Position numbers and translations under genes: made by a program
Notes under the pieces: model-generated
The model's input: only the letters and a program-made list of their open reading frames with translations
Told to the model about the DNA's origin: nothing
Database searches by the model: none
From: a virus
Lineage: Duplodnaviria > Caudoviricetes
IMG/VR virus record: IMGVR_UViG_3300031867_000031
Span: 1-64,000 of that record
Reading direction: 5' to 3' (one strand)
DNA: 64,000 bases
Shown: positions 1,866 to 41,699 of the stretch, one piece after another
Layout of the letters: each line of letters starts with the position of its first letter
Numbering within the stretch: the first letter of the stretch is position 1

Positions 1866-3461
1866 ATGGGTTATGAAGATAATTATCTCATGCATCACGG
1901 AATTAAAGGCATGAAGTGGGGTGTTCGGCGTTTTCGCAATTACGATGGTACTCTAACTAGTGCAGGCAAAGCTCAGCGTAGAGCGCAGAGTTCTGGCGGC
2001 GGCATGTCTTCTAAGACTAAGAAGCGTCTTGCAACCGCTGCAAAAGTTGCTGGTGCTGCTGCAGCTGTTGGCGGCGCGGCATATCTTGCGAATCGCGCTA
2101 GTGGTGGACAGCTTGCTAATAATGTTAAATTTAATGCTCGATATGCTCGCGAGGTTGGTAGAGATGCCATCGACCGTGTGGCTGATACAAAAGCTGGATT
2201 AGCTGTTAGAAAAACTGCATCTACCTTACGAGATAAAGCATCCAATAGTAAAGTCGCTAACCTAGGTAGAACAGCTAAAGCACGTGCTCAGTATGCTATA
2301 GATAGTAATACTAAAATTACAGGCGCTAAACGACGTGCTGGAGAAGCACTTTCGAATGCTAGAACTCGTGTTTCTTCTGCTGCATCCAATGCTAGAGACC
2401 GAGTTTCTTCTGCTGCGTCTAATGCTAGAGACAGAGCTTCTTCTGCTGCATCTACCTTACGAGATAAAGCATCCAATAGTAAAGTCGCTAACCTAGGTAG
2501 AACAGCTAAAGCACGTGCTCAGTATGCTATAGATAGTAATACTAAAATTACAGGTGCTAAACGACGTGCTGGAGAAGCACTTTCGAATGCTAGAGATCGG
2601 CTAGCCAATGCTAGAGATCGTGTTTCTTCTGCTCCATCTAATCTGCGAAATAAACTGTCTAATCGAGCTAGCGTAGCTAAAGCACGTGCTCAGTATGCTA
2701 TAGATAGTAATACTAAAATTACAGGCGCTAAACGACGTGCTGGAGAAGCGCTTTCGAATGTTCGATCTAAAGCGTCAAAAACTTTTAACACTCTTGTTGA
2801 TAGAGGTCAGCAAGAGGTGGATAACAGAGCTGCTGCTAGAAATAGACGAAATGGGACAACTAGCTCCTTATCCAGAGCTGCTCGAGATTTGAATTCTACA
2901 GCAGATGCTCGTATTTCTAGAGCTCGTACGAATGTTAGAAATGCTGTTCGAAATGCTCCCGCTAATGCTAGAAGTGCCGCATCTAATGCTCGAGCAGCAG
3001 CAACTAACGCTATTCGAAATGCTCCAGCCAATGCTAGAAATGCTGCATCTAATGCCAGAGATCGTGTTTCTTCTGCTGCATCTGCTACTAGAAGTAGAGC
3101 TGTCAGTGGTGCCAGTTATTTACGAGACAGAGTTTCTTCTGTTGCGTCTAATGCGCGAACTCGCGCAGCCAATAGCAAACTCGTTACTAAAGCATCCAAT
3201 AGTAAACTTGCTAATCGAGCTAGAGTAGCTAAAGCACATGCTCAGTATGCTATAGATAGTAATACTAGAATTACAGGCGCTAAACGACGTGCTGGAGAAG
3301 CCGCCTCTTCTGCTAGGTCCAAGTTGAGTAATGCCGGCAGAATGGCAAGAAGTACTGCTAAGGCTGGCTATTATAGTACCGCTGGTAAGAGCAAGATACA
3401 AGAGCAGACAAGAACCGCCAAGCGTCGCGCCAATAATCGTCGTATGTATGGTAACGGTTAA
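1866..3461 (+). CDS. HHG-motif cargo protein 1, basic Ala/Arg/Ser/Asn repeat protein
   Basis: YLMHHGIKGMKWGVRRFRNYDGTLT N-terminus; internal repeats. Confidence 0.85.
   Translation: MGYEDNYLMHHGIKGMKWGVRRFRNYDGTLTSAGKAQRRAQSSGGGMSSKTKKRLATAAKVAGAAAAVGGAAYLANRASGGQLANNVKFNARYAREVGRDAIDRVADTKAGLAVRKTASTLRDKASNSKVANLGRTAKARAQYAIDSNTKITGAKRRAGEALSNARTRVSSAASNARDRVSSAASNARDRASSAASTLRDKASNSKVANLGRTAKARAQYAIDSNTKITGAKRRAGEALSNARDRLANARDRVSSAPSNLRNKLSNRASVAKARAQYAIDSNTKITGAKRRAGEALSNVRSKASKTFNTLVDRGQQEVDNRAAARNRRNGTTSSLSRAARDLNSTADARISRARTNVRNAVRNAPANARSAASNARAAATNAIRNAPANARNAASNARDRVSSAASATRSRAVSGASYLRDRVSSVASNARTRAANSKLVTKASNSKLANRARVAKAHAQYAIDSNTRITGAKRRAGEAASSARSKLSNAGRMARSTAKAGYYSTAGKSKIQEQTRTAKRRANNRRMYGNG
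2215..2594 (+). repeat. 149-bp near-perfect direct repeat (2215-2363, 2446-2594) with shorter copies near 2675-2760 and 3225-3300
   Basis: Encodes ...AKARAQYAIDSNTKITGAKRRAGEALSNAR; 231-bp offset. Confidence 0.9.
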
Positions 3462-3482
3462 TTCAAAATGGAAGTGATGCCG

Positions 3483-3947
3483 ATGAATGAACTATACCAT
3501 CATGGTATTAAAGGAATGCATTGGGGAGTTCGTCGGTTTCAGAATCCCGATGGAACATTAACCGATGCTGGAAAGCGACGTCAACAAATTTCGGATAGAC
3601 AAGTTCGTCGAGACATTAAACGACAGCGTAAGTGGAATGCCAAGAATGCTTCTCAGCTTAGTGATAAAGAATTAACAGATCAAATTCTTCGCCTTCAACG
3701 AGAGAAGCAACTTAAAGATCTTACTGCACAGACCATTAGACCTGCTAAGAAAAAAGTTCTTGACTATGTGGATCGATATGCCGGTCAAGCTATAAGTGCT
3801 GTAGTTACTGCTGCTACGGCTGCTTATGTTACCAATGCTATGACTGCTAGGTCGAATAAACGTCTTGCTGAAAAGGGATATCCTGTTAACATTAAGGGTT
3901 GGCATGTTGAAGACGGAACACTTGTTCCGAATACAAATAATAACTAA
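3483..3947 (+). CDS. HHG-motif cargo protein 2
   Basis: MNELYHHGIKGMHWGVRRFQNPDGTLTDAGKRR. Confidence 0.85.
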   Translation: MNELYHHGIKGMHWGVRRFQNPDGTLTDAGKRRQQISDRQVRRDIKRQRKWNAKNASQLSDKELTDQILRLQREKQLKDLTAQTIRPAKKKVLDYVDRYAGQAISAVVTAATAAYVTNAMTARSNKRLAEKGYPVNIKGWHVEDGTLVPNTNNN

Positions 3948-3973
3948 AGTTTGAGAAAGAGGTGCGGCTGTAT

Positions 3974-5719
3974 ATGAGCCTATCTAATACGGCCGTGCCG
4001 AAGTATTACGGCCTATTTCGAGATGCTGTTATTCGAGGAGAGATTCCTGTAAACGAAGAGATTTCTATGGAGATGAATCGTATAGATGATCTTATAGCAA
4101 ATCCCGGAGTTTTTTATGATGATCAAGCTGTTGAAGGTTGGGTTCGTTTTTGTAATAACGAATTAACTTTAACGGATGGCGCTGATTTAAATCTTCTTGA
4201 TACTTTTAAGCTATGGGGCGAACAGGTATTCGGATGGTATTATTTTGTCGAAGGATCTGTTTGGGAGCCGTATGCTGATGGACACGGTGGTCATTATGTG
4301 CGTAAATCTATTAAGAAACGGCTTACCAATAAGCAATTTTTAATAGTAGCTAGAGGTGCTGCCAAGTCGATGTATGCGGCATCTATTCAAGCATATTTTG
4401 CAGCAGTTGATTCAACTACTACGGATCAAATAGTTACAGCTCCTACTATTCGACAAGCAGAAGAAACGCTATCGCCCATTAGAACTGCATTAGCTAGAGC
4501 TAGAGGTCCTCTTTTTAAGTTTCTTACAGAAGGATCTATTAACAATACAACAGGATCTCGAATTAATAGACCAAAACTTGCTTCTACAAAAAAGGGTATA
4601 GAAAATTTCTTAACAAATTCTATCATAGAATCACGACCTATGTCTATTGATAAACTTCAGGGTTCTCGTTGCCGAGTTGCAACAATTGATGAGTGGCTTT
4701 CTGGAGACATCCGAGAAGATGTCATTGGTGCAATTGAACAAGGTGCATCGAAGAATGACGACTATCTTATAATCGCAACTTCTTCAGAAGGTACTGTTCG
4801 AAATAGCGCCGGTGATACAATCAAAATGGAATTGATGTCCATTCTTAAGGGCGAGTATATTAATCCACATGTATCAATCTGGTATTACAAATTAGATGAT
4901 GTTAAAGAAGTTGCCGATCCGGCAATGTGGATGAAAGCTCAGCCCAATATTGGAAAGACTGTAAGCTATGAAGTTTATCAGCTGGATGTAGAACGTGCAG
5001 AAAAGAATCCGTCGACGCGTAACGATATTCTTGCTAAGCGTTTTGGTATTCCAATGGAAGGCTATACGTACTTCTTTACGTATGAAGAAACGCTTCCCCA
5101 TAGACAACACGACTTTTGGTCTATGCCATGTGCGCTTGGTGCAGACCTGTCGCAAGGTGACGATTTTTGTGCTTTTACATTCTTGTTTCCTTTGCGAGAT
5201 GGTGCATTTGGCGTAAAAACTAGATGCTATGTTACCGAAGTTGCTGTTAAGAAATTACCTTTGGCAATGCGGCAAAAGTATGAAGAATTCATAAAAGAAT
5301 GCAGCTTAGTAGTATTAGGCGGAGCAGTTCTTGATATGATGGAAGTGTATCAAGATCTTGATGAATACATAATAAATTCTGATTATGATGTCGTGTGTTT
5401 TGGGTTTGATCCGTATAATGCTAAAGATTTTGTTGCTCGATGGGAAACTGAAAACGGTCCTTATGGAATCGAAAAAGTAATTCAAGGAGCTAGAACTGAA
5501 TCGGTTCCTCTTGGTGATCTAAAACATTTAGCCGAAGAGCGATTGCTATTATTCGATCAAGAATTAATGTCGTTCTGCATGGGAAACTGTATTACATTAG
5601 AAGATACTAATGGTAATAGAAAACTTCTTAAAAAGCGTAATGACAAAAAGATCGATAGCGTTGCGGCTATGATGGATGCTTATGTGGCCTATAAGATACA
5701 TCGTGACATGTTCGAATAG
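3974..5719 (+). CDS. terL: Terminase large subunit
   Basis: Walker A VARGAAKS, Walker B IDEW, nuclease GADLSQGDDF and KIDSVAA motifs. Confidence 0.92.
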   Translation: MSLSNTAVPKYYGLFRDAVIRGEIPVNEEISMEMNRIDDLIANPGVFYDDQAVEGWVRFCNNELTLTDGADLNLLDTFKLWGEQVFGWYYFVEGSVWEPYADGHGGHYVRKSIKKRLTNKQFLIVARGAAKSMYAASIQAYFAAVDSTTTDQIVTAPTIRQAEETLSPIRTALARARGPLFKFLTEGSINNTTGSRINRPKLASTKKGIENFLTNSIIESRPMSIDKLQGSRCRVATIDEWLSGDIREDVIGAIEQGASKNDDYLIIATSSEGTVRNSAGDTIKMELMSILKGEYINPHVSIWYYKLDDVKEVADPAMWMKAQPNIGKTVSYEVYQLDVERAEKNPSTRNDILAKRFGIPMEGYTYFFTYEETLPHRQHDFWSMPCALGADLSQGDDFCAFTFLFPLRDGAFGVKTRCYVTEVAVKKLPLAMRQKYEEFIKECSLVVLGGAVLDMMEVYQDLDEYIINSDYDVVCFGFDPYNAKDFVARWETENGPYGIEKVIQGARTESVPLGDLKHLAEERLLLFDQELMSFCMGNCITLEDTNGNRKLLKKRNDKKIDSVAAMMDAYVAYKIHRDMFE

Positions 5720-5754
5720 ATTTTAGATCCGAGTAAATAGTTGGGAGGTGACTA

Positions 5755-7176
5755 ATGTCATTAAAAGATCGTTTTGCTAGTGCTTGGAATGCATTTCAAT
5801 CTGAGCCAAAAAGACAAGAAGAGACTACTGAGCATTATACTAATATTAGTTATGGGAATTTTGGCTCATCTAGTTTCTATAGAAATGATCGTCATAGACT
5901 TCGGTTCAATAACGATCGGTCTATTCTTAATACTATTTTTAATAGAATCGCTAATGACGTTGCGTCTGTTCAGATCCAACATATTAGAACGGATAGTAAT
6001 GGACGTTACCTCGAAACTATTAAATCCGGACTAAACGAATGCATGACGTTATCAGCTAATCTCGACCAGACATCTAGAGATTTCTGGTTAGATTTAGTTT
6101 TATCGATGCTTGATGAAGGCGCTGTTGCGGCAGTACCAGTTGACACCGATAGAAATTTAGATCGAAATAATTCATTCGACGTACTTTCCATTAGAACCGG
6201 CCGCATTATTAATTGGGAGCCAAGTTCCGTCAAAATGGAAGTATACAACGAACGTAGCGGGTCTCAAGAGCAGATAACTCTACCAAAAGAAAAAGTTGCT
6301 ATTCTTGAGAACCCATTCTATTCGATAATGAATGAGCCGAATTCTACGCTAAAAAGGCTTGTTTATAAGATGAATTTGCTCGATCAGATCGATGGTCAAA
6401 AAGCTTCTACAAAACTTAACATGTTTATTAAATTGCCATATTCTTTGAAGTCTCCAACTCGTGTAGCACAAGCTGAAGAACGTAGAAAAACTATTGAAGA
6501 TCAATTAGTTAATTCTAAATACGGTATCGCGTATATTGATCAAGCTGAGCAAATTACACCCTTGGGCCGATCTCTTGAGAATGATTTGCCAGCACAGATT
6601 CAAACACTAACTGATCAATTGTATAATCAGATAGGTATTAGCGCAGATGTTTTTAAGGGTACTGCTAATCAAGAGCAGCAGTTAATTTATAATAAAAAAG
6701 TTTTAAAGCCAATATTAGATTTGATAGAGTTGGAGTTTACAAGAAAATTTCTTACTCCAACCGCTAGGACTCAAGGTCAAAAAATAGGTTATTTCATTGA
6801 CGCTTTCGATATGGTTACCCCGACGGAAGTTGGCGAAATGGCTAATTCTTTGAGTCGTAACGAAATTCTATCTGCTAATGAGTTTAGATCTATTCTTGGC
6901 TATAGACCTAACGATTCTGAAAGATCGGACCAGCTTATTAATAAGAATCTGCCGATTAATCAAGTTGATCCAAATGCTAATGCTGAAACTACTCAGCCGA
7001 AATTAGATACCGAATCAATGGCATTACCCGAAGAAGCTGAGGAATATTTATCTCAATCCGACGAAATGGAAAAAGAATCACTAAAACATGCCGAGTATGA
7101 TCCGACAGCTAGGCACAAACGTTATTTAAAGAAACGTGCAAAACTTGGAATAGGTAAAAGTAACAAAAGAAGATAG
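5755..7176 (+). CDS. Portal protein with C-terminal extension
   Basis: Follows terL; 473 aa; HK97-like portal features (LSANEFRSILG...DQL). Confidence 0.88.
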   Translation: MSLKDRFASAWNAFQSEPKRQEETTEHYTNISYGNFGSSSFYRNDRHRLRFNNDRSILNTIFNRIANDVASVQIQHIRTDSNGRYLETIKSGLNECMTLSANLDQTSRDFWLDLVLSMLDEGAVAAVPVDTDRNLDRNNSFDVLSIRTGRIINWEPSSVKMEVYNERSGSQEQITLPKEKVAILENPFYSIMNEPNSTLKRLVYKMNLLDQIDGQKASTKLNMFIKLPYSLKSPTRVAQAEERRKTIEDQLVNSKYGIAYIDQAEQITPLGRSLENDLPAQIQTLTDQLYNQIGISADVFKGTANQEQQLIYNKKVLKPILDLIELEFTRKFLTPTARTQGQKIGYFIDAFDMVTPTEVGEMANSLSRNEILSANEFRSILGYRPNDSERSDQLINKNLPINQVDPNANAETTQPKLDTESMALPEEAEEYLSQSDEMEKESLKHAEYDPTARHKRYLKKRAKLGIGKSNKRR

Positions 7177-7216: not shown

Positions 7217-9286
7217 ATGGATTACGATTTTTGTGGCTATGCCACTAAGAACGATCTGCTTTGTGCAGACGGTCGCGTAATCCGTCACGATGCCTTCAAG
7301 GAGAGTGATGGACAAATTGTGCCTCTTGTTTGGCAACATGTTCATTCTGATCCTAAAAATGTTTTGGGTCATGCGCTTCTTGAGAATCGTGATGATGGCG
7401 TGTATGCTTATGCGACGTTTAATAATACGCCGTCTGGTCAGCATGCAAAAGAGATGGTTAAACATGGTGATATTTCTGCCATGTCCATCTACGCGAATCG
7501 TCTTAAGCAATACGGTACGGATGTCGTTCATGGAATCATTCGTGAGGTAAGCCTCGTTCTTGCTGGCGCAAACCCTGGCGCATATATTGAAAACATTAGT
7601 TTTGCGCATGCTGATGGTACATACACAGATGTTGACGATGAAGCAGTCATTTATTCTGGACCAGATACTATCGACTATATTAGCCATGCAGATGAGGAGG
7701 ACGAAGTGGGAGACGATATTCTAGATCAGCTTTCTGATGAGCAGATCGATGCGATCAATCGAATTATTGATGCAGCAATTGATGGTGCAGTAGACGATCT
7801 CGATGATGAAGATGTTCTGGACGATCTTACGCCAGAGCAGCTTGAGACAATCGGCGACCTTATTGAGGATGCAGTAAGCGAAGCTCTTGAGCATGCCGAT
7901 GACGACGATGACGAGTATTACGACGATGACGACCTTGACGAAGACGACTACGATGAGGATGACTTCGACGAGGATGAAGACGAGGGCGATGACGTCCAGC
8001 ATTCGTATTATGATTACGATGAGTATTATGATTATGATATTCAGCATGCTGATGACGATCCTACTGTCGAGGATGTCTGGAATACTCTCAACGAAGAGCA
8101 AAAGAATTTAGTATATTTTCTGATTGGCCAGGCTAACGAGGATAATGTGGCCGAGCATAGCGCAATCTATGATGGAGGTTTTGACATGAAGCACAACGTT
8201 TTCGACGATGCGTACTATGACGACGAGGATGTTCTTACTCACGATGAGTTCGATGCTATTATGGCGGATGCCTATAATGCGAACTCTCTTCGCGATGTCT
8301 TCCTCGCACATGGTATCACCAATCTTGATGTTCTGTTCCCGGAGGCCAAGCTTGTTACCCCGACTCCTGAGATGATTTCTCGTGATATGGGCTGGGTTGA
8401 TCAGCTTTGGAATGCTATTAAACGCACTCCTTTCGCGCGTATTAAGTCTACTGCTGCTAACATTACCGCTCCTGAGGCTCGTGCAAGGGGTTATGTTAAG
8501 GGTAATCTGAAGGCCGAGGAGGTCATTGTTCTTCTTTCCCGTGAGACTTCCCCGCAGACGGTGTATAAGAAGCAAAAGCTTGATCGCGATGACGTTATCG
8601 ATATTACTGATATTGATGTCATTGCGTGGATGAAGCAGGAAATGCGCGTCATGCTTAATGAGGAGATTTGCCGCGCTATTCTTGTTAGTGATGGCCGTGG
8701 TAGCACGCATGCTGATAAGATTAAGGAAGATAAGATTCGTCCTATTTATCAGGATACTGATGTCTACACTATCCATTACGAGATCACGTATGGCGCCAAT
8801 GATACTGAGGATCAGAAGGCTAGTAAGATTGCTGATGCCGCAGTCCGCGCTCGTAAGGATTACAAGGGTTCCGGTACTCCGTGGCTCTTTGCTTCTAACG
8901 AGGTTATCTCTGATATGATGCTTGCGAAGGACACCATTGGCCGTCGTCTCTATAAGGACGAGGACGAGCTTAAGGCTGCTCTTCGCGTTTCCAAGATTGT
9001 CGAGTGCCCGATTCTCGAGAATGTTACTCGTAATCGTGCCGCTGATGCTACTGCTGGTATTACTGCTGCTACGATGGATCTTAAGGCTCTTATCTTCAAC
9101 CCGATTGATTATACGGTTGGTGCCGATAAGGGTGGCGCGGTTTCGCTCTTTGACGACTTCGATATCGACTACAACCAGATGAAGTATCTGATTGAGACTC
9201 GTATCTCGGGCGCGCTCACTAAGCCGTATAGTGCTATTGCTCTCGAGGTTGAGCATCCTGCTACGACTGGTGGTAATGAGGGTTAA
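7217..9286 (+). CDS. Prohead protease-acidic scaffold-major capsid fusion protein
   Basis: N-terminal HK97-type protease (PLVWQH, MSIYA, EVSLVLAGANP), Asp-rich linker, capsid domain from about GITNLDVLFPEAK. Confidence 0.88.
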   Translation: MDYDFCGYATKNDLLCADGRVIRHDAFKESDGQIVPLVWQHVHSDPKNVLGHALLENRDDGVYAYATFNNTPSGQHAKEMVKHGDISAMSIYANRLKQYGTDVVHGIIREVSLVLAGANPGAYIENISFAHADGTYTDVDDEAVIYSGPDTIDYISHADEEDEVGDDILDQLSDEQIDAINRIIDAAIDGAVDDLDDEDVLDDLTPEQLETIGDLIEDAVSEALEHADDDDDEYYDDDDLDEDDYDEDDFDEDEDEGDDVQHSYYDYDEYYDYDIQHADDDPTVEDVWNTLNEEQKNLVYFLIGQANEDNVAEHSAIYDGGFDMKHNVFDDAYYDDEDVLTHDEFDAIMADAYNANSLRDVFLAHGITNLDVLFPEAKLVTPTPEMISRDMGWVDQLWNAIKRTPFARIKSTAANITAPEARARGYVKGNLKAEEVIVLLSRETSPQTVYKKQKLDRDDVIDITDIDVIAWMKQEMRVMLNEEICRAILVSDGRGSTHADKIKEDKIRPIYQDTDVYTIHYEITYGANDTEDQKASKIADAAVRARKDYKGSGTPWLFASNEVISDMMLAKDTIGRRLYKDEDELKAALRVSKIVECPILENVTRNRAADATAGITAATMDLKALIFNPIDYTVGADKGGAVSLFDDFDIDYNQMKYLIETRISGALTKPYSAIALEVEHPATTGGNEG

Positions 9287-30746: not shown

Positions 30747-31428
30747 TTCTCGTGATGCAATTGTGGCATATTGCCGCAGGAACCTTGGCTGTTCTTATAG
30801 CTATACTCCGTCTGGCGGTGTTGAAGGACGATCCTATAATTGTTCCTACCTAAGCACTTGCGCATACAAGGCTGCTGGTCTGACCATTCCTGGTTGGCAG
30901 GGTCATCAAAATGGTGATGGTTCACAGTCAGATTGGGTTTATCGCAACGGCCATTGGACCACTGATAAATCCAAACTAAAGCCGGGCGATTTGGTCTTCT
31001 TTGGAACAAGTCGCACTAATACCGGTCATGTTGGAGTGGTTAGCAGGTCAGGCACAGTTCCTTATATTATCGACAGCACGCCAAGTCGAGGAGTAGCAGA
31101 GCGTCTGCTCCCCACTGGTGCAGGCTTTGTTGGAGGAGGATGGCCGCTTGCTAATCTTCCTGCGGACAGTACAAAAACGGAGGGATTCACTGTGAATAAG
31201 ACAGTTACCGTTCGTAGCGATTTTCTGCGAGTCCGAGATGCCCCTTCTATTAAGACGGGCAAAGTCGTCATGAGTGGTGGCAAAGAGGTTCACTATGCTA
31301 AGGGCGATACCGTAACGATTGATTCTATCATAATCGGAGACGATGGTTATGCATGGGGGCACTACATCGGAGCTTCTAGTAAGAAAGACCGATACATTGC
31401 ATTAGGAATCCTCGAAAACGCTCGATAA
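30739..31428 (+). CDS. Endolysin, NlpC/P60 catalytic domain plus SH3-like cell-wall-binding domain
   Basis: YNCSYL (Cys), LKPGDLVFF, GHVGVV (His); C-terminal LRVRDAPS...GYAWGHY. Confidence 0.85.
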   Translation: MSNSRDAIVAYCRRNLGCSYSYTPSGGVEGRSYNCSYLSTCAYKAAGLTIPGWQGHQNGDGSQSDWVYRNGHWTTDKSKLKPGDLVFFGTSRTNTGHVGVVSRSGTVPYIIDSTPSRGVAERLLPTGAGFVGGGWPLANLPADSTKTEGFTVNKTVTVRSDFLRVRDAPSIKTGKVVMSGGKEVHYAKGDTVTIDSIIIGDDGYAWGHYIGASSKKDRYIALGILENAR

Positions 31429-33665: not shown

Positions 33666-33764
33666 AGACGCAGCAATTAATTTATGTAGAATAATAGGCA
33701 TTATAATAGCTGTATGCTGTTTTGGATTAATACTATACAACGACTATTAATAAAATTCAAAATG

Positions 33765-33820
33765 GAACCCAAAGTTCTATAAATTTTATTATGGAGCTTT
33801 GGGTTTCTCTTTTATTTTTA
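33765..33820 (+). terminator. Intrinsic terminator
   Basis: AACCCAAAGTTC...GAGCTTTGGGTT hairpin followed by T-tract. Confidence 0.7.
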
Positions 33821-33884: not shown

Positions 33885-34091
33885 ATGATTCTTAGTAACA
33901 AATATTATGATCTTCTTAAGTGGATTGCACTTATTGTTCTTCCCGCTCTCGGTACTTTATATTTTGGGCTTGCCAGGATTTGGGGACTCCCGTTCGGTGA
34001 GGAAATTGTTGGTACTATTACCGTTATCGATACGTTTCTTGGCGCGCTTCTTGGCGTTAGTACTAATAATTATTATAAGCAGAATGAGTAA
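33885..34091 (+). CDS. Holin (Dp-1-like family)
   Basis: LSNKYYDLLKWIALIVLPALGTLY...WGLP...IVGTIT..DTFLGALLGVS; two TMs. Confidence 0.85.
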   Translation: MILSNKYYDLLKWIALIVLPALGTLYFGLARIWGLPFGEEIVGTITVIDTFLGALLGVSTNNYYKQNE

Positions 34092-34112
34092 TTCCAACAT
34101 GGGAGGTCAATA

Positions 34113-35111
34113 ATGGAGTATTTACCCTCCTATAAGGATGATTTATATTTAGCTCACCATGGTATTCTTGGCCAAAAGTGGGGTGTTAGACGATTTCAAA
34201 ACTCAGATGGTTCTTTAACCCGTGCTGGCAGAGCTCGATACGGCAATTCAGAAAATAGTACTAAATCCAATAACAAACTTAAAACTGCTGCAAAAGTTGC
34301 TGGCGCGGCTACGGCTGTTGGTTTAGCCGGAATGGGTGCGTACGCAATATCTAAGAGTGGCATGCCGGTTGGCGGAGTACATAATATTTCTGAATTGCGT
34401 AAACCTGGTTTACCAATTTTAACTCAACGTGACAGTTCCATGGCTACTGCTGCTATAAAAGTTAACCCGAATGCCAAAAGCGGAAATGATGCATATTTGT
34501 TTAATTGTACTCATTGCTCAGTTGCATATGATCTTCGTAGACGAGGTTATGATGTTGAAGCTGGACCAGGCCATGTGCATCTAGAGCGTTTTATGCGAAA
34601 AGCATATGCTGGAGCAGAATACCATACTATTCCGGGTATAAGTTCTGGTGGAGGAGCTGCGGCTAAAGATAGAGAGCTTAGTATTAAAAATCTTCGTACT
34701 AATCTACGAATGCAAAAACAAGCTCAAAAACAAGCCATCGATGATCCCCAAGGTTTTGCTAGAGATCAAAGACGGATGACTGACAATATTCTTAAACAAT
34801 GTGAGGATATGGGTCCTGGAGCTAGAGGAGCTATTAATCTTACTCTTGCTAACGGTATGGGTCATTGTATTGCTTTTGAATGCGACGAAAAAGGTCAGGC
34901 GCATCTTATTGATTCGCAGCTAATTGCTACAACTACTGGAATACTTGGAATGGGTGGTGCGCATGGCACCAGAGGTTCCTCATATGTTGATGATTTTATA
35001 GCTAAAAGCATACTTCCATGTATGCCAGTTAGTGTAACGCGGTATGATAATGCAGAACCGAACATTGAGTTTTTAAAGAAGAAACGAATAGTAGTACCAA
35101 GTGAAGGTTAG
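34113..35111 (+). CDS. HHG-motif cargo protein 3 with papain-fold (Tox-PL-like) toxin domain
   Basis: LAHHGILGQKWGVRR N-terminus; NCTHC..AYDLRRRGYDVEA, GHCIAFE, LIDSQ catalytic-triad pattern. Confidence 0.75.
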   Translation: MEYLPSYKDDLYLAHHGILGQKWGVRRFQNSDGSLTRAGRARYGNSENSTKSNNKLKTAAKVAGAATAVGLAGMGAYAISKSGMPVGGVHNISELRKPGLPILTQRDSSMATAAIKVNPNAKSGNDAYLFNCTHCSVAYDLRRRGYDVEAGPGHVHLERFMRKAYAGAEYHTIPGISSGGGAAAKDRELSIKNLRTNLRMQKQAQKQAIDDPQGFARDQRRMTDNILKQCEDMGPGARGAINLTLANGMGHCIAFECDEKGQAHLIDSQLIATTTGILGMGGAHGTRGSSYVDDFIAKSILPCMPVSVTRYDNAEPNIEFLKKKRIVVPSEG

Positions 35112-35125
35112 TGAGGTGAATATTA

Positions 35126-35368
35126 ATGTCTCCGGATCGTGCGATAAAAATTGCTGAAAATAAATTGCATATGGTCTGTACTGGTTTTGGATATGAATAC
35201 GAAGGCGATTACTATTTAGAAATGGCTCCACAGAATTATAATCCGAACAAAGATGGTGCAATTTCTGATTCTTGTTATAAAGTTGATTCTGTTACGGCAA
35301 AAGTGACGCCATATAGTCCGGCGGTAAATGGTATACAAGATATTAGAAAGATGCACTTTTTTAATTAA
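35126..35368 (+). CDS. Putative immunity protein
   Basis: 80-aa gene directly after the toxin-like ORF; A..IA...L helix followed by beta strands; lacks HHG motif. Confidence 0.5.
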   Translation: MSPDRAIKIAENKLHMVCTGFGYEYEGDYYLEMAPQNYNPNKDGAISDSCYKVDSVTAKVTPYSPAVNGIQDIRKMHFFN

Positions 35369-35380
35369 ACGGTGGTAGCC

Positions 35381-36022
35381 ATGTATGAAATGAATGATTT
35401 ATTTTTAATGCATCATGGAATCAAGGGTCAGAAATGGGGTGTAAGAAGATTTCAAAATCCTGATGGCTCTTTAACTAAAGCAGGAACTAAAAGATATCGA
35501 CAGGAACGTCGATCATTGAGACGAGATATTCGAAAAATACAAAGATCTAACTATTTAAAAACTGGTAGCATTGACGGCAAATACGCTAGTAAAGTGAATA
35601 AAAAAATAAGCACGGCTCAACGCAATGACAAAGAATACCAGAGACTTAGTAGGAAAGTTACGCAAGCAGAAAACGAAGCTTCAGCTGCTTCAAACTTAAG
35701 AGATAGAGCATCAGAACATAATATGGACATTGCGGAATATGAGTATGATAAAGCATATTCCAGATTAAATACAGCACTTACTGAAAAAGAAGCACGAGGT
35801 AAACAAATAGCAGATCGATATTTAAACGAATATCATAATGCTAAAATTAAAGATCTAGGTTTTAGTGATGTTGAACAAGGTAGAAAATATTTTGAACACT
35901 ATAATTTATTAAACGTTGTTTATACTGATTCGAATGCTGGCTCTAGGAATGCTAATAGAGCAATAGATGCCATACGTGACAGTGCGAAAATAGCCAATGC
36001 ATATCGCAAAGCTCATAGCTAA
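35381..36022 (+). CDS. HHG-motif cargo protein 4
   Basis: FLMHHGIKGQKWGVRRFQNPDGSLTKAG. Confidence 0.85.
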   Translation: MYEMNDLFLMHHGIKGQKWGVRRFQNPDGSLTKAGTKRYRQERRSLRRDIRKIQRSNYLKTGSIDGKYASKVNKKISTAQRNDKEYQRLSRKVTQAENEASAASNLRDRASEHNMDIAEYEYDKAYSRLNTALTEKEARGKQIADRYLNEYHNAKIKDLGFSDVEQGRKYFEHYNLLNVVYTDSNAGSRNANRAIDAIRDSAKIANAYRKAHS

Positions 36023-36038
36023 TTAAAAGGTGGTAGCT

Positions 36039-37091
36039 ATGGACGAAACAAGTGATTTATTTTTAATGCATCACGGAATTAAAGGTATGAAGTGGGGAGT
36101 GCGTAGATTCGAGGATGCAAATGGCCATCTTACGCCTGCCGGTAAGCGTCGATATGGTATACAAGATGCTCGCAAATATTATAAAATTAATAGACTTCAG
36201 CGAATGAGTGAGCGAAGCGATAATCCTAGAATAAAGAATTTACTTTCTGGAGAAATTCGTCGAACGCAAACTCGTTCTGATAGAAAACACGCCGATTTAA
36301 ACAAACAAGATATTAATGCCGGTAGAGAAATTGTCGCGAAGCACAGACTTAAATGGGCGGGAGTTAATACTGCTGCTAAAGCCGCATTAACAGCTGCTGG
36401 ATCTGCGTATTTATATTCTAATCCTAATACTAGAGCACTTGCTCCTGTTGCATTAGCTGGTGGAGCGGCATTAACTTATGGCAGTGCTAAAAAAGTGCCA
36501 TATTACTTTATGGAAAATCGTCGCTATAAGCAAGTTAATCCAAAAAATGTTACAACAAAAGGATTGACTAAAAAGCAACAGGCACTCCGTAAAGCTGGAA
36601 AAATTGCATTAGGAGTTGGAGCAACAGCAGCCGTAGCCGGAACAAGCGCATATTTACTTAGTAAAGCTGCTAGAAATAACGCTAATAACAATACACCTAA
36701 AAAAGCGAGTGTTGCTACACAAGCCGTTTATGATGCTAATAAACAGTATACTAAATCTAAAGCACAAGAAGCTGCTAAAGCATCAACCAAAAATGCTGTT
36801 AGAAATGGTGTATCTCAAGCTGGTCGAACTGTTAGAAATGTAGTAGGAAATGCCGCTCGAGCAGGTGTTCGAACTGTTAGAAATGCCGTGGTTAGTCGAG
36901 TTACACGAGATTTCGATCCAGATGATCCTAGTACATATGCTACGGCTATTCGAAATGGTCGAGACATATATAATAATATTAATAGTATTCGAACTAACGG
37001 TGCTCCGGCAGTGATTAGTATGGCGACACAAGCAACAATTGATGCGACTAACGATTTAATTGAGCGTTATAGAAATCGTCGAATGTCTTAG
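36039..37091 (+). CDS. HHG-motif cargo protein 5 with Gly/Ala hydrophobic segments
   Basis: FLMHHGIKGMKWGVRRFEDANGHLTPAG. Confidence 0.85.
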   Translation: MDETSDLFLMHHGIKGMKWGVRRFEDANGHLTPAGKRRYGIQDARKYYKINRLQRMSERSDNPRIKNLLSGEIRRTQTRSDRKHADLNKQDINAGREIVAKHRLKWAGVNTAAKAALTAAGSAYLYSNPNTRALAPVALAGGAALTYGSAKKVPYYFMENRRYKQVNPKNVTTKGLTKKQQALRKAGKIALGVGATAAVAGTSAYLLSKAARNNANNNTPKKASVATQAVYDANKQYTKSKAQEAAKASTKNAVRNGVSQAGRTVRNVVGNAARAGVRTVRNAVVSRVTRDFDPDDPSTYATAIRNGRDIYNNINSIRTNGAPAVISMATQATIDATNDLIERYRNRRMS

Positions 37092-37102
37092 GAGATATTA
37101 CT

Positions 37103-37396
37103 ATGAGTGATTTATACGGCGAAATGACTGATGAAAAGTTTAATAAACTTGCTACTACTACCATTGCTAATTGGTGGAATAATCAGGATGAACTTGTTGA
37201 CATATTCGGTTCAATTTCTCCAGATGAAGTGTATACTACATGGAAATGTAAAGCTATTGAGAATTTTAAAGGTTTATTCGGTGTTCCCCGCGATGGTGAT
37301 GGTTTATATTTCGAGTTTACATTCCATGGTAAGAAAAACTGCTGTTATCTCGACGTTTATAAAAAGCAAACTCAAATAATTGTCGATCTTAATTAA
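37103..37396 (+). CDS. DUF6275-like phage protein
   Basis: VYTTWKCKAIENFKGL...YFEFTFHG...YLDVYKK pattern (recognised from memory). Confidence 0.55.
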   Translation: MSDLYGEMTDEKFNKLATTTIANWWNNQDELVDIFGSISPDEVYTTWKCKAIENFKGLFGVPRDGDGLYFEFTFHGKKNCCYLDVYKKQTQIIVDLN

Positions 37397-37898: not shown

Positions 37899-37909
37899 AA
37901 AACTCTAGA

Positions 37910-37950
37910 GGTGGTTAGTCGAAAGATTAACCACCTTTTCTTTTTTTTTC
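37910..37950 (+). terminator. Intrinsic terminator
   Basis: GGTGGTTAGTC-GAAA-GATTAACCACC then T-tract. Confidence 0.85.
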
Positions 37951-37982
37951 AAAAGATGATAGGAGGGAGGAGTAGAAGACAT

Positions 37983-38624
37983 ATGGAGCATATTCCTACT
38001 TTCATTGACCAATTAGATGCAGATTATATTTCACACCATGGCATTAAAGGAATGCGTTGGGGTGTAAGAAGATATCAAAATCCTGATGGCACATTAACGG
38101 CTAAAGGTAAACAAAGATATAAAAATACTAAGGTAATGTATAAAGATTTGAAAAAACAAGTACACAAGCAACGTGCTAAAGAACATGGCGGATCTAATAG
38201 ATGGAGGACAGTTACTCCAATAGGCGAACATTCTCGTAAATACATAGATGATATTTCGAAAAAAGAAGAGGCATATCGTAATTCAGATGCCTATAAGAAA
38301 TGGGAAAAAGATTATGATAGTTTTCAAAAAAATTGGAATAGAAAATTTGAAAAAACACCTACTTATGATTCAAAATTAATAGACCAATATAATAAAGAAG
38401 ATCGCGAAATGATTAAAAAACGACCTAGAAAAAATTTCAAAAGTCCCTATGATGGTTTTTATACAGTTACTTCACAAGGTAGAAAATACACTAAACGTTA
38501 TCTTAATGGTGCCGGCAGAGATTTATCTATGGCCTATGTTAGAGATTTGGGCTATTCAGAATCTACAGCTAGTAAAATGGTTGATCAAATGATAAAGTCT
38601 GGACGAACTCTTGGCATGGACTGA
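37983..38624 (+). CDS. HHG-motif cargo protein 6
   Basis: MEHIPTFIDQLDADYISHHGIKGMRWGVRRYQNPDGTLT. Confidence 0.85.
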   Translation: MEHIPTFIDQLDADYISHHGIKGMRWGVRRYQNPDGTLTAKGKQRYKNTKVMYKDLKKQVHKQRAKEHGGSNRWRTVTPIGEHSRKYIDDISKKEEAYRNSDAYKKWEKDYDSFQKNWNRKFEKTPTYDSKLIDQYNKEDREMIKKRPRKNFKSPYDGFYTVTSQGRKYTKRYLNGAGRDLSMAYVRDLGYSESTASKMVDQMIKSGRTLGMD

Positions 38625-38660
38625 CGATCAACCACTTTTTCTTTTTAAGGATTTTTCAAA

Positions 38661-39000: not shown

Positions 39001-39087
39001 AAGAATAGTAAAATAGTAGGTTAAAAGGTAAAACCACTATCACCGGACAGAAATACGGGTTCGAGCCCCGTCTATTTTACTATTCTT
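39001..39087 (+). ncRNA. tRNA-like small RNA with 16-bp closing stem and no normal anticodon loop
   Basis: D-arm GGTT-AAAAGGTAA-AACC, T-arm ACGGG-TTCGAGC-CCCGT, own promoter at 38973, T-tract after. Confidence 0.6.
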
Positions 39088-39123
39088 TTTATTTTTTAGC
39101 TTCACAAGAATAGGAGGGTAGAA

Positions 39124-39849
39124 GTGGAACACCTACCATCATTTATAGATGATCTTCATGTTGATATTAAGCCGTCATTTATTGCGCATTCATTTAGAGA
39201 TGAACATGATGCTAAAATGATGTATGGGTTGCCTAAGGTAAAGAAATTTCCTATGCCTGACGCAAAGCATGTACGATCTGCTATTAGGTTTTTTAATTAC
39301 GCTAAACCATCTCAAGAACAAGAGTTAGCTAATGCTATTCTAGCTCGAATGGATGATTATGGTATCGACCCCGATGATATTAATGTCGGTGATGATAATC
39401 GTTTTAAGAAATATTTACAGCATTCATATTTAGCGCATCATGGCATTAAAGGAATGCATTGGGGTGTGAGAAGGTATGAAAATTATGACGGCACTCTAAC
39501 CGCTGCCGGTAAAAAACGTTATGAAGGATTAGATCGCAAAAGTCAAAAAGCTAAAAAGAAATATTTAAAAATGATGGATAAAGATATGGAAAATCATTTT
39601 TACAATCAGTTAAGTCCGAATGCTAGAAAAGTTTCTGCAATTGGGCGCAATGGACGTGAGATACTTGGACAAGCTTGGGGAGAAGCGTATCGAAAAGGAT
39701 ACGTAACCGATAAAGATCATGCACAAATTAAGAAAGCAGCTAAAGAGACTCGTTCATATATGTCCAAAAAGTATGGCGATTCTGCAATGAAAGCTTTTAC
39801 AAGATCTGGAGTACTTTTTAGAAAAATTGATGATTTTGATACGTTATAG
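39124..39849 (+). CDS. HHG-motif cargo protein 7 (internal motif, extra N-terminal domain)
   Basis: FIAHS...KKFPMPDAKHVRSAIRFF...YLQHSYLAHHGIKGMHWGVRR. Confidence 0.85.
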   Translation: MEHLPSFIDDLHVDIKPSFIAHSFRDEHDAKMMYGLPKVKKFPMPDAKHVRSAIRFFNYAKPSQEQELANAILARMDDYGIDPDDINVGDDNRFKKYLQHSYLAHHGIKGMHWGVRRYENYDGTLTAAGKKRYEGLDRKSQKAKKKYLKMMDKDMENHFYNQLSPNARKVSAIGRNGREILGQAWGEAYRKGYVTDKDHAQIKKAAKETRSYMSKKYGDSAMKAFTRSGVLFRKIDDFDTL

Positions 39850-39939
39850 AATCAACTATACTTTTATATTTTTCGCAGAAAAAACTCCTCCTTTATAGCA
39901 AGAGTCCAAAAGAGACTTAACTATTGAGAGGAGTTGTAT

Positions 39940-40254: not shown

Positions 40255-40264
40255 AGGACTTTTG

Positions 40265-40310
40265 AAAAAGGATTGTGAGGTCGAAAGACTTTACAATCCT
40301 TTTTTCTTTT
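40265..40310 (+). terminator. Intrinsic terminator
   Basis: AAAAAGGATTGTGAGGTC-GAAA-GACTTTACAATCCTTTTT. Confidence 0.85.
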
Positions 40311-40485: not shown

Positions 40486-40857
40486 ATGTCGTATGATAGA
40501 GATGGTGATATTTTTAAGCTTCATAATATAGGAGTCTCGGATATGAAACTTTCAGAGTTTTACAAATTGTCTAAACAACGAATTCGTCAAATTATTTTTG
40601 AGCAACGTCGTAGACATAGAAAAGGCAACCCTGATATTCCACAAATTGATACCATGTGCAGAATTCTTGGTTGGAGAGAAAATGAGAGAGGAAAACTTCA
40701 ATCGATTTTGCACAAGAATGGATACACTTCGTATGATGATAAATGGCGAGATTTATCCTCGGATGATATTTTAGCCATACCTTTGTTGGGGCCGTCTGCT
40801 GTGTGCATTATTTGGCTTGCTCAAAACATGGATGACGAAACGGATTCGACTAAATAG
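40486..40857 (+). CDS. sigma4-like HTH plus alphaCTD-like HhH protein
   Basis: YKLSKQRIRQII HTH; LSSDDILAIPLLGPSAV HhH. Confidence 0.6.
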   Translation: MSYDRDGDIFKLHNIGVSDMKLSEFYKLSKQRIRQIIFEQRRRHRKGNPDIPQIDTMCRILGWRENERGKLQSILHKNGYTSYDDKWRDLSSDDILAIPLLGPSAVCIIWLAQNMDDETDSTK

Positions 40858-40868
40858 GATTTGGATAT

Positions 40869-41057
40869 TTGATGATACTTTTAGTTATTAGCATTTTGGT
40901 ATCTATAACGATAGATGCTTCGCTTAAAGTAATTAGTTTTATGAGTATGTATTCGAGATATATGAGTTCTGCATATTTGAAATTTATTAGAGCGCAAATT
41001 GCTATTAGCATAATCGAGCTATTTAGTATTGCGTTGTTGATAGTTCGGTTGGGTTAG
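40869..41057 (+). CDS. Small membrane protein
   Basis: Two hydrophobic segments. Confidence 0.45.
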   Translation: MMILLVISILVSITIDASLKVISFMSMYSRYMSSAYLKFIRAQIAISIIELFSIALLIVRLG

Positions 41058-41071
41058 GAGGGTAAAAGATT

Positions 41072-41699
41072 ATGGAGTATCTTCCGACTTTTATTGATCA
41101 ATTAGATGTAGATTATATTTCACATCATGGAATTAAAGGAATGCATTGGGGGTATAAGAAGGTATCAGAATGCTGATGGTTCTTTGACACCTGCTGGAAG
41201 AAAACGGTATGACGAAACAACAAAGCTTATGCGACGTGCTGATTCTTATGAATCTGCTGCTAAACATTTAAATTCGCAAATACATCCTAACAAAAGTAGG
41301 ATAGAACGCGCTAGAATAATGACTCAAGCTGTAAAAGCACAACAAAAAGCGGATCGTATACGCTCAAGATTAGACCCCGATATTGTTTCTAAAATTGAAC
41401 AGGATAGAAAAATTGAATTGAAGAAAAAGCAAGCGGCAAAAGAAAAAGAATGGCATAATAGTCCATCTAGCAGAAGATATCGTTTTATGGATGACGCAAT
41501 GCATGAAGTATTTGGAGCAAATACCAAAAGTGATTATAGGAATCTATATAGAGAAATGAGTAAGGACAAACGTTTTAAAAATTTATTAGATTCTGAAGAT
41601 AATGATGATTACAAAGAAGCAGAAGCGGCTTGGCTTAAAAAGCATGGGTATTGGGAATCATATTTAGATGCTATACATAATGGTTATAAAGACATATAA
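41072..41699 (+). pseudogene. HHG-motif cargo protein 8, frameshifted in a G5 run
   Basis: MEYLPTFIDQLDVDYISHHGIKGMHWG then extra G in 41148-41152; GIRRYQNADGSLTPAG continues in another frame. Confidence 0.75.

Follow-up and report, generated by a model that had tools for sequence, protein, structure and literature searches.

A short peptide of about 30-35 residues, carried by some ten otherwise unrelated, mostly basic proteins of a gut-type phage, probably marks these proteins as cargo of the phage head: sequence comparisons point to basic proteins that would enter the prohead, undergo trimming by the head protease and reach the next host together with the DNA. Eight copies of this tag lie in the window analyzed (the first 64,000 nucleotides of IMG/VR record IMGVR_UViG_3300031867_000031), in genes A to H starting at 1866, 3483, 34113, 35381, 36039, 37983, 39124 and 41072; these and all other features of the window named below are on the plus strand. 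An earlier note on this DNA had described a module common to eight ORFs, and every copy was found where it had been placed, seven of them intact and one broken. Its count of eight family members holds for the window, but the whole 82,331-bp genome contains two more diverged copies, one combined with GNAT (64527-65684) and the other a variant tag on a YonO-like RNA-polymerase-like protein (78356-81118).

The tag corresponds to Pfam PF23847 (DUF7211), a 25-position family without known function whose model spans just the first ~20 residues of the tag; no mention of DUF7211 was found in the literature searched. Against a curated cut-off of 27 bits, hmmscan gave 40.3, 34.8, 33.4, 45.6, 38.7 and 38.2 bits for A, B, D, E, F and G, respectively. 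Protein C scored 26.3 bits by hmmscan and 29.3 bits in a six-frame genome search, which gave 28.8 bits for gene H, and all eight window copies thus passed the cut-off in at least one of the searches. The two copies outside the window were under it (20.7 bits) or too diverged, and 14 control genomes contained no PF23847 matches. Twelve tags from the phage and its close relatives share the invariant columns H, H, G, I, G, W, G, R, R, G, T and G. Every tag opens with Leu/Ile-x-His, the leader ahead of this Leu-x-His has just 5-17 residues, and in 188 of 202 tagged ORFs from 80 IMG/VR loci the tag begins no later than about residue 35. Tags have a net charge of +3 to +8 and are predicted to be flexible (AF2 pLDDT <50 at residues 1-23 and 61-82 at residues 24-47), which would fit a docking or substrate peptide. 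In Firmicutes phages the second half of the tag is also conserved (Arg-Arg-Phe/Tyr-x-Asn-x-Asp-Gly-x-Leu-Thr-x-x-Gly); this half was not found in the actinophage tags examined.

In the window, two tagged genes lie just before terL and six follow the holin, as previously described; the two stand between the connector gene and terL, and the holin is of the Dp-1 type. The head-tail connector protein (1484..1843; PF24829, E 4e-26) anchors synteny with orf6 of phage 1706 and gp6 of phage Circum. It is followed by protein A (1866..3461; 531 aa, pI 11.9), in which the N-terminal DUF7211 tag precedes basic helical repeats and whose gene has 33-nt tandem repeats at 2355-2452 and 2931-3045, and by protein B (3483..3947; 154 aa; phrog_7021, E 2.7e-22), directly upstream of terL. 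Protein B occupies a lineage-wide position (connector, tag gene, terL), and tblastn with it gave matches in the same slot of Arthrobacter, Streptomyces and Microbacterium phages. The large terminase gene terL (3962..5719), which has a megablast match to annotated Arthrobacter phage terminase genes, adjoins the portal gene (5755..7176; PF04860) here; relatives often have at least one tagged gene in this slot.

The holin gene (33885..34091; PF16938, E 2.7e-30; phrog_881) marks the start of the post-lysis cluster. Beyond protein C, discussed below, this includes protein D (35381..36022; 213 aa, basic and helical, PF23847) and protein E (36039..37091; 350 aa), where the tag and a basic region precede Ala/Gly-rich hydrophobic segments and the C-terminal part is 75% identical to an ORF in locus L012. 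An untagged DUF6275 protein (37103..37396; PF19791, E 6.7e-17) comes after E. It recurs as a small neighbour of tagged genes: in loci L060 and L019, homologs adjoin tagged genes immediately ahead of the portal gene. Protein F (37983..38624; 213 aa, PF23847) is a window-specific cassette. Protein G (39124..39849; 241 aa) begins with a leader and a small domain that weakly resembles DUF6582; an internal tag, at residue 105 (PF23847 at residues 101-119), and a C-terminal part follow. Since residues 22, 100 and 105 are hydrophobic-x-His sites, it is effectively a two-module mini-polyprotein. Gene H (41072..41699) is broken by one extra G in the G-run GGGGG at 41148-41152, and its downstream frame starts at 41127; GGGG is found instead in three paralogous or orthologous tags of the near relative L004, whose ortholog of H is an intact 211-aa ORF.

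All eight tagged window proteins are basic (pI 9.4-11.9). With the tags removed, no significant pairwise similarity was found among their C-terminal parts, which the earlier note had called unrelated. The hydrophobic hairpins that it saw among these C-termini are present as hydrophobic stretches, but they are Ala/Gly-rich and weakly hydrophobic.

The papain-fold toxin reported among the C-termini was confirmed in protein C (34113..35111; 332 aa), where the tag and a flexible Ala/Gly-rich linker are followed by a papain-fold Cys-His-Asp domain. This domain scores 30.5 bits, against a cut-off of 24.1, with PF15644 ('glutamine deamidase toxin', papain fold toxin 1), and its catalytic residues are intact: among 53 homologs C132, H251 and Q269 are invariant and D267 is nearly so. 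The AF2 model has pLDDT >90 at residues 100-332, with fold matches (VIA) to SpvD (Z 11.9) and OspI (Z 8.3); Foldseek alone gave weak rows. The score, the Cys-His-Asp order and the papain-like fold agree with PF15644, and deamidase activity is predicted. No recognised toxin domain was found in the other tagged window proteins. Protein C is followed by an untagged partner of 80 aa (35126..35368), a candidate immunity protein with no Pfam or PHROG family matches. A tabulation of downstream genes, which the earlier note had called for, revealed a conserved small partner (an ORF of 79-110 aa) directly after most of 15 toxin-domain ORFs in other loci. In a leave-one-out profile from ten partner ORFs, 35126-35368 alone was strong among the 795 ORFs of the genome (E 6.6e-12). 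The small partner gene thus appears to co-vary with the toxin domain, which makes it a candidate for an immunity role.

Tagged genes are closely linked to head genes. In our survey of 80 tag-bearing IMG/VR loci, 76 contained head-module genes and 190 of the 202 tagged ORFs flanked terL, with 88 upstream of it (all within 3.5 kb), 79 between terL and portal, and 23 adjacent where one neighbour falls outside the locus. The tag occurs in phages of Lactococcus, Faecalibacterium, Arthrobacter, Gordonia, Streptomyces and Rhodococcus, and in many uncultured gut and rumen phages. No matches were found in 72,556 plasmid records, which we count in favour of head cargo. In the phage collection, the lineage with a protease-capsid fusion has the same host genera as the tag matches; all comparisons being within one phage lineage, the joint presence of tag and capsid type cannot count as independent evidence. 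No integrase was seen among the scanned genes, and the lineage looks virulent. ORF7 of Lactococcus phage 1706 has two tags and is annotated 'structural protein', which is the sole direct hint at head cargo. The 1706 record also labels ORF62 and ORF71 structural, both far from the morphogenesis genes, which suggests that these labels are experimental. Counted against head cargo is Arthrobacter phage Circum, where the connector is labelled virion structural and the tagged gp7 'hypothetical'.

The sole protease seen near the tagged genes is fused to the capsid protein. This prohead protease-spacer-capsid fusion (7217..9286; PF04586) comprises an S78 protease (residues 1-131), an acidic spacer (132-365; 89 D+E vs. 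4 K+R) and an HK97-fold capsid part (366-689). In the protease part H52, S90, H105 and S112 are conserved, and H131, where the protease homology ends, does not vary among 18 fusions. All nine spacer His have a hydrophobic residue at -2, a result equalled by 2 of 100,000 shuffles; the first lies at the end of the protease homology and the last upstream of the capsid fold. Over 21 fusions, hydrophobic-x-His accounts for 123/137 His in the spacer vs. 101/215 His elsewhere in the same proteins (Fisher 1.8e-17). In the AF2 model, site 365 is ~25 residues ahead of the first structured capsid element, and the capsid model matches HK97 folds and also encapsulins. The spacer site Asp-Tyr-Ile-Ser-His is the same as in the leaders of tags F and H; Val-Leu-Ala-His is found in spacer and tags alike in Circum, and spacer and tags are also paired in Lactococcus phage 1706. 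The C-terminal tail of the portal protein has Leu-Lys-His (residue 445) ahead of a basic tail, possibly a further processing site, which is not found in the portal tails of L011 and 1706. After the spacer-site His, Ser, Ala, Gly or Asn follows in ~80% of cases in the 21 fusions, whereas His or Tyr follows the presumed cut in tags, so that the tag His may be cut poorly or not at all.

We propose that the tag is a bipartite linear peptide marking phage head cargo. The first part, (Asp/Asn)-x-aromatic-Leu/Ile-x-His, would be a site of the same kind as those in the acidic spacer, most likely cut after the His by the S78 prohead protease. The second part, His/Tyr-Gly-Ile-Lys-Gly-Met-Lys-Trp-Gly followed by a basic region, would most likely dock the protein inside the assembling prohead and remain on the mature protein. 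The docking surface may be the acidic spacer, the protease domain or the inner surface of the shell; the match between the acidic spacer and the positively charged tags and basic cargo is in keeping with this proposal. The cargo would be a changeable set of basic proteins, encoded by separate genes, as here, or as a polyprotein with a tag at each junction, and after DNA packaging it would exit along with the genome to act in the next host. We infer cleavage at the His, loading, retention, ejection and cargo action from the sequences. That the six post-holin genes are separated from the head module and preceded by strong terminator-like hairpins counts against the proposal as regards co-expression with the head genes.

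The earlier note had taken the module for a capsid-loading tag of a packaged effector set. The linkage to terL, the Leu-x-His sites of the spacer, the polyproteins, the turnover of cassettes, the toxin with its partner and 1706 ORF7 are all consistent with this, but a recognisable toxin with an immunity-like partner is present in 34113 only, and the other members are presumed rather than recognised effectors. Its analogy with T4 internal proteins may hold for the site pattern common to spacer and tag. It fails in that the conserved ~30 residues are downstream of the presumed cut (between the two His of Leu-x-His-His-Gly), so that maturation would leave them on the protein.

The best 120 tag-profile matches are proteins of 330-1,872 aa, 119 of which have 2-7 tags; in 425 tags the His is present in 100% and a Leu two residues ahead of it in 99%. 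Polyprotein genes, where they could be placed, lie in the terL-portal slot, among them that of a 1,642-aa protein with six tags in L011. Single-tag window proteins align to internal polyprotein modules: protein D gives ~180-aa alignments to P0020, P0086 and P0053, and protein G matches P0117 with 65% identity over its residues 32-131. Since each polyprotein module carries a tag copy, a role after cleavage (retention or exit) may be as likely as one in loading. For 67% of internal polyprotein tags, another hydrophobic-x-His site was found 6-43 residues further upstream, vs. 7% of background windows. One could argue from these tagged junctions with doubled sites, from the six genes after the holin and from the immunity-like partner of the toxin, which is not obviously needed if the cargo acts only after injection, that the tag is a processing junction only and that its products act unpackaged in the infected cell, in membrane remodelling, superinfection exclusion or late host shut-off. 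We consider this rather unlikely. A cut site needs few residues, as in the spacer, which keeps hydrophobic-x-His only, yet the tag holds ~30 more that are near-invariant; substrates of a capsid-fused protease should be inside proheads; and many relatives have tagged genes in the terL-portal slot, with the tagged ORF7 of 1706 labelled structural.

The C-termini proved polymorphic rather than conserved across relatives, in agreement with the earlier description. Although the flanks are 93-95% identical, the near relative L004 differs from the window by five whole-cassette swaps, and a 678-bp stretch (37948-38625) encoding protein F is missing from it. Proteins C and D are not present in the near relatives L004 and L005, whereas protein E is conserved in L004, L005 and L007.

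A flexible, basic peptide on proteins encoded beside terL and portal might also dock some other common partner (the portal, the terminase, packaged DNA or a host hub protein), the likeness of its Leu-x-His to the spacer sites being incidental and the proteins being assembly or packaging accessories rather than delivered effectors. Member B, kept next to terL from Firmicutes phages to actinophages, would suit such a role. Since this leaves the toxin, GNAT and RNA-polymerase-like modules, the cassette turnover and the enrichment of hydrophobic-x-His at junctions unexplained, we regard it as unlikely.

The position of six genes after the holin, the pair of toxin and immunity-like gene and the polymorphic-toxin architecture, with a conserved N-terminus and variable C-terminus, could alternatively reflect bacteriocin-like toxins freed at lysis against neighbours, with the tag as an uptake or cell-wall-binding element and the partner genes protecting kin. 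The proteins have no signal peptide or receptor-binding domain, uptake through ~30 flexible residues is implausible, the tag is also found on a GNAT enzyme and, as a variant, on an RNA-polymerase-like protein, and in many relatives the genes lie in the terL-portal slot, away from lysis genes; such toxins are therefore very unlikely.

Recombination does occur at the tags: over 100 nt, the DNA of leader and tag is ~90% identical among F, H and three L004 genes, and gene H resembles a recombinant of two tandem L004 genes (7400 and 8094), window positions 41056-41197 aligning to both as expected from tag-tag recombination. That the module is merely a conserved 5' gene end for cassette swaps, encoding a functionless peptide, is nevertheless highly improbable, because other tags have a third-codon identity of 35-65% vs. 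an amino-acid identity of 56-74%, which indicates selection on the peptide, and because the peptide is conserved between Firmicutes phages and Arthrobacter/Rhodococcus phages and matched by at least 31,931 protein clusters (50% identity). Recombination at tags would be a consequence of the conserved peptide and not the reason for it.

Head cargo marked by a peptide has several precedents. In T4, the gp21 prohead protease cuts a capsid-targeting sequence off the internal proteins IPI-III and Alt (Mullaney and Black 1996, as cited in PMC9024508; review PMC9026906). That sequence and the tag are both short N-terminal peptides on unrelated, mostly basic proteins; a site type common to peptide and scaffold and a cargo including host-modifying enzymes would be further parallels. 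They lack sequence similarity, and the presumed site is hydrophobic-x-His here but Leu/Ile-x-Glu in T4. The conserved peptide follows the presumed cut here and precedes it in T4, and only here do tags recur in polyproteins and is the protease, of the HK97-type S78 kind, fused to the capsid protein.

For phage P1, which has an HK97-like shell and a suggested scaffold domain inside its capsid precursor, the first 30 residues of DarB suffice to load a reporter (PMC9024508). The signal is likewise N-terminal and of ~30 residues, and DarB is delivered with the DNA, as proposed here; there is no common motif, and the P1 signal serves Dar proteins vs. ~10 swappable genes in our phage. In the phiKZ-like phage SPN3US, gp245 cuts many head-internal proteins, virion RNA polymerase subunits among them, which are ejected into the host (PMC7411985, PMC10052503). 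Cutting by a prohead protease at a short consensus is shared, if it takes place here as proposed, but the phiKZ-like phages are giant myoviruses that infect Gram-negative hosts, have another kind of protease and lack multi-tag polyproteins, and no common tag downstream of the cut is described there.

MuF toxins of temperate phages combine a head-associated N-terminal part with variable C-terminal toxins and downstream immunity genes, and their genes adjoin those for portal and terminase, mainly in Firmicutes phages (PMC5576092). The tagged proteins resemble them in the conserved N-terminal and variable C-terminal parts and in gene position near terminase and portal. The MuF carrier is a folded domain (SPP1 gp7-like) of several hundred residues, as opposed to a flexible peptide of ~35 residues, and MuF phages are temperate whereas the present lineage looks virulent. 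Pfam detected no MuF domain (Phage_Mu_F / SPP1 gp7) in tagged proteins or polyproteins, and an identity as MuF polymorphic toxins was rejected. Like polymorphic toxins in general, the family has a conserved N-terminus with unrelated C-termini, its cassettes differ between close relatives, and a small downstream gene, a candidate for a protective role, co-varies with the toxin; a toxin domain with an intact active site was found in member C only.

Encapsulin cargo-loading peptides are short and flexible and direct unrelated enzymes into an HK97-fold shell; they are usually C-terminal and bind the shell directly, without a protease or DNA. The tag shares their shortness and flexibility, and the capsid model matches encapsulins, but the tag is mostly N-terminal and both a protease and DNA are involved in our proposal. 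A prohead protease code specific for histidine would, as far as we know, be without precedent.

More broadly, and only tentatively, DUF7211 and the hydrophobic-x-His code may form a general, undescribed head-loading and processing system in a large lineage of phages that infect Gram-positive bacteria, a reading that is quite possible though short of probable. A capsid-fused HK97-type protease would cut after His, and the retained peptide of ~30 residues would address a swappable arsenal to the capsid interior and then to the next host. Toxins with their immunity partners, acetyltransferases and membrane-active proteins would belong to this arsenal, as perhaps would the RNA polymerase of the phage itself. 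Although very widespread, the tag has no assigned function. If the proposal is true, it would explain a large block of genes labelled 'hypothetical' beside terminase and portal in tag-bearing phages and would define a histidine-specific prohead protease code. The tag would then be a handle for finding phage-injected proteins and for loading reporters into such capsids, and siphophages that infect Gram-positive bacteria would deliver a fast-changing protein payload, including toxin and immunity pairs, together with their DNA.

Eight copies of the tag, a peptide of about 35 residues at or near the N-terminus (internal in G) of the proteins here called A to H (genes at 1866, 3483, 34113, 35381, 36039, 37983, 39124 and 41072), were recovered in agreement by motif scan, Pfam and six-frame search, together with two diverged copies beyond the window. 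The module is Pfam DUF7211 (PF23847), a name that our literature search encountered in no paper. All eight tagged proteins are basic and, once the tags are removed, share no detectable mutual similarity, as expected from the unrelated C-termini described in the earlier note, whose observation of the tag is correct and far beyond chance. Gene H is broken in frame by one extra G in a run of five; in the near relative L004, an IMG/VR locus, the run consists of four Gs in three related tags and the ortholog of H is intact. Protein A has tandem repeats of 33 nt (11 residues) in which Ala, Ser, Asn and Arg are abundant (2355-2452 and 2931-3059).

Chance or low complexity as the source of the tag is excluded by the E-values and the invariant columns, and a resemblance of its second half to what we take to be choline-binding or YD-repeat motifs was rejected, the motifs being out of register. 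No Sec signal or lipoprotein signal was seen in the tagged proteins. A type VII secretion substrate of the WXG/LXG kind was rejected, the sole match being a weak, sub-threshold one to WXG100_2 in a paralog from L004. The Arg-Arg-Phe of the tag recalls a twin-arginine signal, but the hydrophobic stretch is at least 30 residues away or missing. A purely DNA-level repeat was rejected as well: third-codon positions of the tags are near saturation while the peptide is kept, so that selection acts on the peptide. A variant tag, ending in Trp-Gly-x-Arg-Asn-Gly-Pro-Pro-Tyr-Pro-Leu, is carried by a GNAT protein far from the cluster (genome 64527-65684; L008:527-1684) and opens a 297-aa gene, L004:1207-2100, which lies directly before the holin in L004 and L005 and is missing from the window phage.

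The phage record of 82,331 bp, the first 64 kb of which form the window, is rated 99% complete in IMG/VR, and every gene discussed here is on the + strand. The order of genes at the left end (small-terminase-like gene, HNH endonuclease, connector (PF24829), tagged genes at 1866 and 3483, terL, portal and capsid fusion) is that of Lactococcus phage 1706 and Arthrobacter phage Circum. On this synteny the phage is assigned to a published supercluster that joins 1706-like Lactococcus phages, Faecalibacterium phage FP_oengus and several actinophage clusters, with a YonO-like RNA polymerase with HTH domains as the signature gene (bioRxiv 10.1101/842583). A homolog of this polymerase is encoded at genome 78356-81118 (L008:14356-17118), with an Asp-Phe-Asp-Gly-Asp loop at residue 540. 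The YonO-like polymerases of the window phage and of 1706 (ORF75) show an N-terminal Leu-x-His-Tyr-Gly ... Trp-Gly-Ser-Gly, a half-match to the tag, and in many loci the polymerase gene immediately precedes that for the small terminase. An NlpC/P60-CHAP endolysin (30694-31428) follows the tail genes, and a Dp-1-type holin (33885-34091) is followed by the cluster of six tagged genes. Early-region genes at 49671-50180, 50507-51163 and 51980-52783 encode an AAA_33/zeta-toxin-like kinase, a ThyX thymidylate synthase and an ADP-ribosylglycohydrolase-like protein; the ten ORFs scanned showed no integrase.

A profile built from 12 tags matched at least 31,931 proteins among 1.84 billion representatives. 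Head-module genes were present in 76 of 80 IMG/VR loci picked by tag similarity alone, and 190 of the 202 tagged ORFs in these loci flank terL: 88 lie at most 3.5 kb upstream of it, typically straight after the connector gene, 79 occupy the slot between terL and portal, and 23 are adjacent to terL with one neighbour outside the locus. Around terL, Rhodococcus phage ReqiPepy6 carries eight tagged genes, seven of them in the terL-portal slot, with nearly one and the same peptide in all eight (N-terminal in seven, internal in gene 13). Carriage on plasmids or elsewhere outside phages was rejected, the tag having no match in 72,556 plasmid records. The layout of the window is unusual in that the terL-portal slot (5719-5755) holds no gene and six members come after the holin, an arrangement shared by a few relatives (L004-L007 and L012); in the sub-lineage comprising these and the window phage, the cargo genes have apparently been relocated to behind the holin. 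Three long terminator-like hairpins with stems of 14-19 bp followed by T-runs split the post-lysis region into units and are positioned just before the holin (33764-33807), before gene F (37907-37938) and after the gene at 39934 (40264-40305). The cargo cluster also contains two tRNA-like elements, one at 39010-39080 (Rfam tRNA, 46.3 bits; abnormal anticodon loop, 'cc', according to ARAGORN) and a partial match at 42844-42899 (34.3 bits).

The most informative new result is the occurrence of polyprotein forms. Top-scoring tag proteins in a 5.8-billion-protein collection range from 330 to 1,872 aa in length, with 2-7 tags apiece, and the modules between tags vary, including GNAT acetyltransferase, PF15644 papain-fold, Ala/Gly-rich hydrophobic segments and basic coiled coils. 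One such gene (1,642 aa, six tags) occupies the terL-portal slot of L011, and multi-tag ORFs are found in the same slot of L029, L058 and L080. ORF7 of phage 1706 and gp7 of Circum have two tags each. The single-tag proteins of the window align with internal modules of the polyproteins, and protein G, with its internal tag, is a small two-module form. Recurrence of the peptide at each polyprotein junction, and at the start of each split form, is what one would expect of a processing site joined to a functional peptide.

A candidate for the processing enzyme is encoded by the capsid gene (7217-9286), the product of which is a 689-aa fusion of S78 prohead protease, acidic spacer and HK97-fold capsid protein. 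The tag His is present in 100% and Leu at position -2 in 99% of 425 polyprotein tags, and all nine spacer His of the window fusion have a hydrophobic residue at -2, an outcome reached by 2 of 100,000 shuffles. Among 21 distinct fusions the hydrophobic-x-His rule holds for 123 of 137 spacer His vs. 101 of 215 His in the remaining parts of these proteins, and a second such site is located 6-43 residues upstream of 67% of internal polyprotein tags vs. 7% of background windows; all these counts come from related sequences, so that the events are not independent, and the effect sizes are large. The first spacer site, His131, coincides with the end of protease homology and is conserved without exception in 18 fusions, and the last, His365, is about 25 residues upstream of the first confident HK97-fold element (the AF2 model of the fusion is of moderate confidence, pLDDT 62.6, with 18 sequences). 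The pattern is kept in 1706 and Circum despite their diverged spacers. In Circum, Val-Leu-Ala-His is common to spacer sites and tag leaders, and in the window one spacer site, Asp-Tyr-Ile-Ser-His, is identical to the leaders of F and H. The protease part also retains the conserved His and Ser that an active S78 enzyme should have, and we therefore infer that this protease would cut after His and that, given its fusion to the capsid protein, it would do so inside the prohead. Two possible extra processing sites were seen, a Leu-Lys-His ahead of a very basic tail in the portal (residues 445-473; 7087-7176), which is missing from L011 and 1706, and a Val-Glu-His nine residues from the capsid C-terminus (9254-9286).

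Cleavage by itself would not call for 30 further conserved residues. The rest of the tag is basic (net charge +3 to +8) and predicted to be flexible in the one tagged protein modelled; the spacer has 89 acidic vs. 4 basic residues. The simplest reading is that the basic part would dock on the acidic spacer, on the protease domain or on the inside of the shell. With the conserved part located after the presumed cut and one copy in each polyprotein module, every mature product would keep it, and it may serve there in retention or in passage out through the portal. The residue after the spacer His is mostly Ser, Ala, Gly or Asn in the 21 fusions, and that after the tag His is His or Tyr rather than a small residue, which makes it conceivable that the tag is a slowly cut or uncut pseudo-substrate tethering cargo to the protease; this is speculation.

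Comparison with L004 bears out the polymorphism of C-terminal cassettes across relatives. The flanks are 93-95% identical, and five whole-cassette changes fall within 9 kb: C, an 80-aa gene and D (34095-36052) as well as F (37948-38625) are present in the window only, and L004 alone has three other tagged genes. Gene H aligns with two tandem L004 genes, as would be expected after recombination between their nearly identical leaders.

Protein C matches PF15644 above the cut-off, and among 53 homologs C132, H251 and Q269 are invariant and D267 nearly so. Its structure model is confident, with the effector SpvD and the glutamine deamidase effector OspI as best structural matches in a VIA wide search; Foldseek with the toxin model returned no match at E <= 0.001. 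Together these features are evidence for a putative active papain-fold enzyme. An ORF of 79-110 aa lies directly downstream of most of 15 homologous toxin modules at other loci, and a profile of these neighbours, with the window copy left out, matched the 80-aa ORF at 35126-35368 (E 6.6e-12), the sole other match in the genome being marginal. This ORF has no Pfam or PHROG match and no close relative by peptide-pattern scan, its family being found only via neighbours of toxin modules. In the genomic sense, C and this ORF are a toxin plus immunity-like pair. In the effector set proposed in the earlier note, C is the only demonstrable toxin; a search of the ESM Atlas with the C-terminal part of D turned up nothing informative. 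A small DUF6275 protein without a tag is found repeatedly beside tagged genes, after E (37103-37396) and at L060:5837-6112 and L019:6149-6442, in the latter two directly before the portal gene, and could represent another class of partner or immunity-like protein. In L031, a small immunity-like ORF downstream of a toxin module (2664-2984) has the start of a DUF7211 tag as its 3' end (27.9 bits); either the partner protein is joined to the tagged module that follows or a frameshift has occurred in the next gene.

Packaging has little direct evidence behind it. ORF7 is labelled 'structural protein' in the GenBank record of phage 1706, and the same label on ORF62 and ORF71, far from the morphogenesis genes, suggests that these labels are experimental. 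In several members the tag region has a match to PHROG 35934 ('virion structural protein'); our literature search yielded nothing usable on virion proteomics of relatives. The mechanism proposed has precedents in the capsid-targeting sequence of T4 and the DarB signal of P1 (PMC9024508), in the protease-processed ejection proteins of SPN3US (PMC7411985, PMC10052503) and in MuF polymorphic toxins (PMC5576092). The T4 case differs from the tag studied here, whose conserved part would stay on the mature product. The best available, unproven interpretation is that the tag is a head-loading signal on packaged, delivered phage proteins, which preserves the capsid loading proposed earlier with the amendment that the tag is probably retained rather than removed and doubles as a polyprotein junction. 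Head-loaded, protease-processed and delivered phage proteins would be of a kind already known; what is new here is the peptide and the presumed protease specificity.
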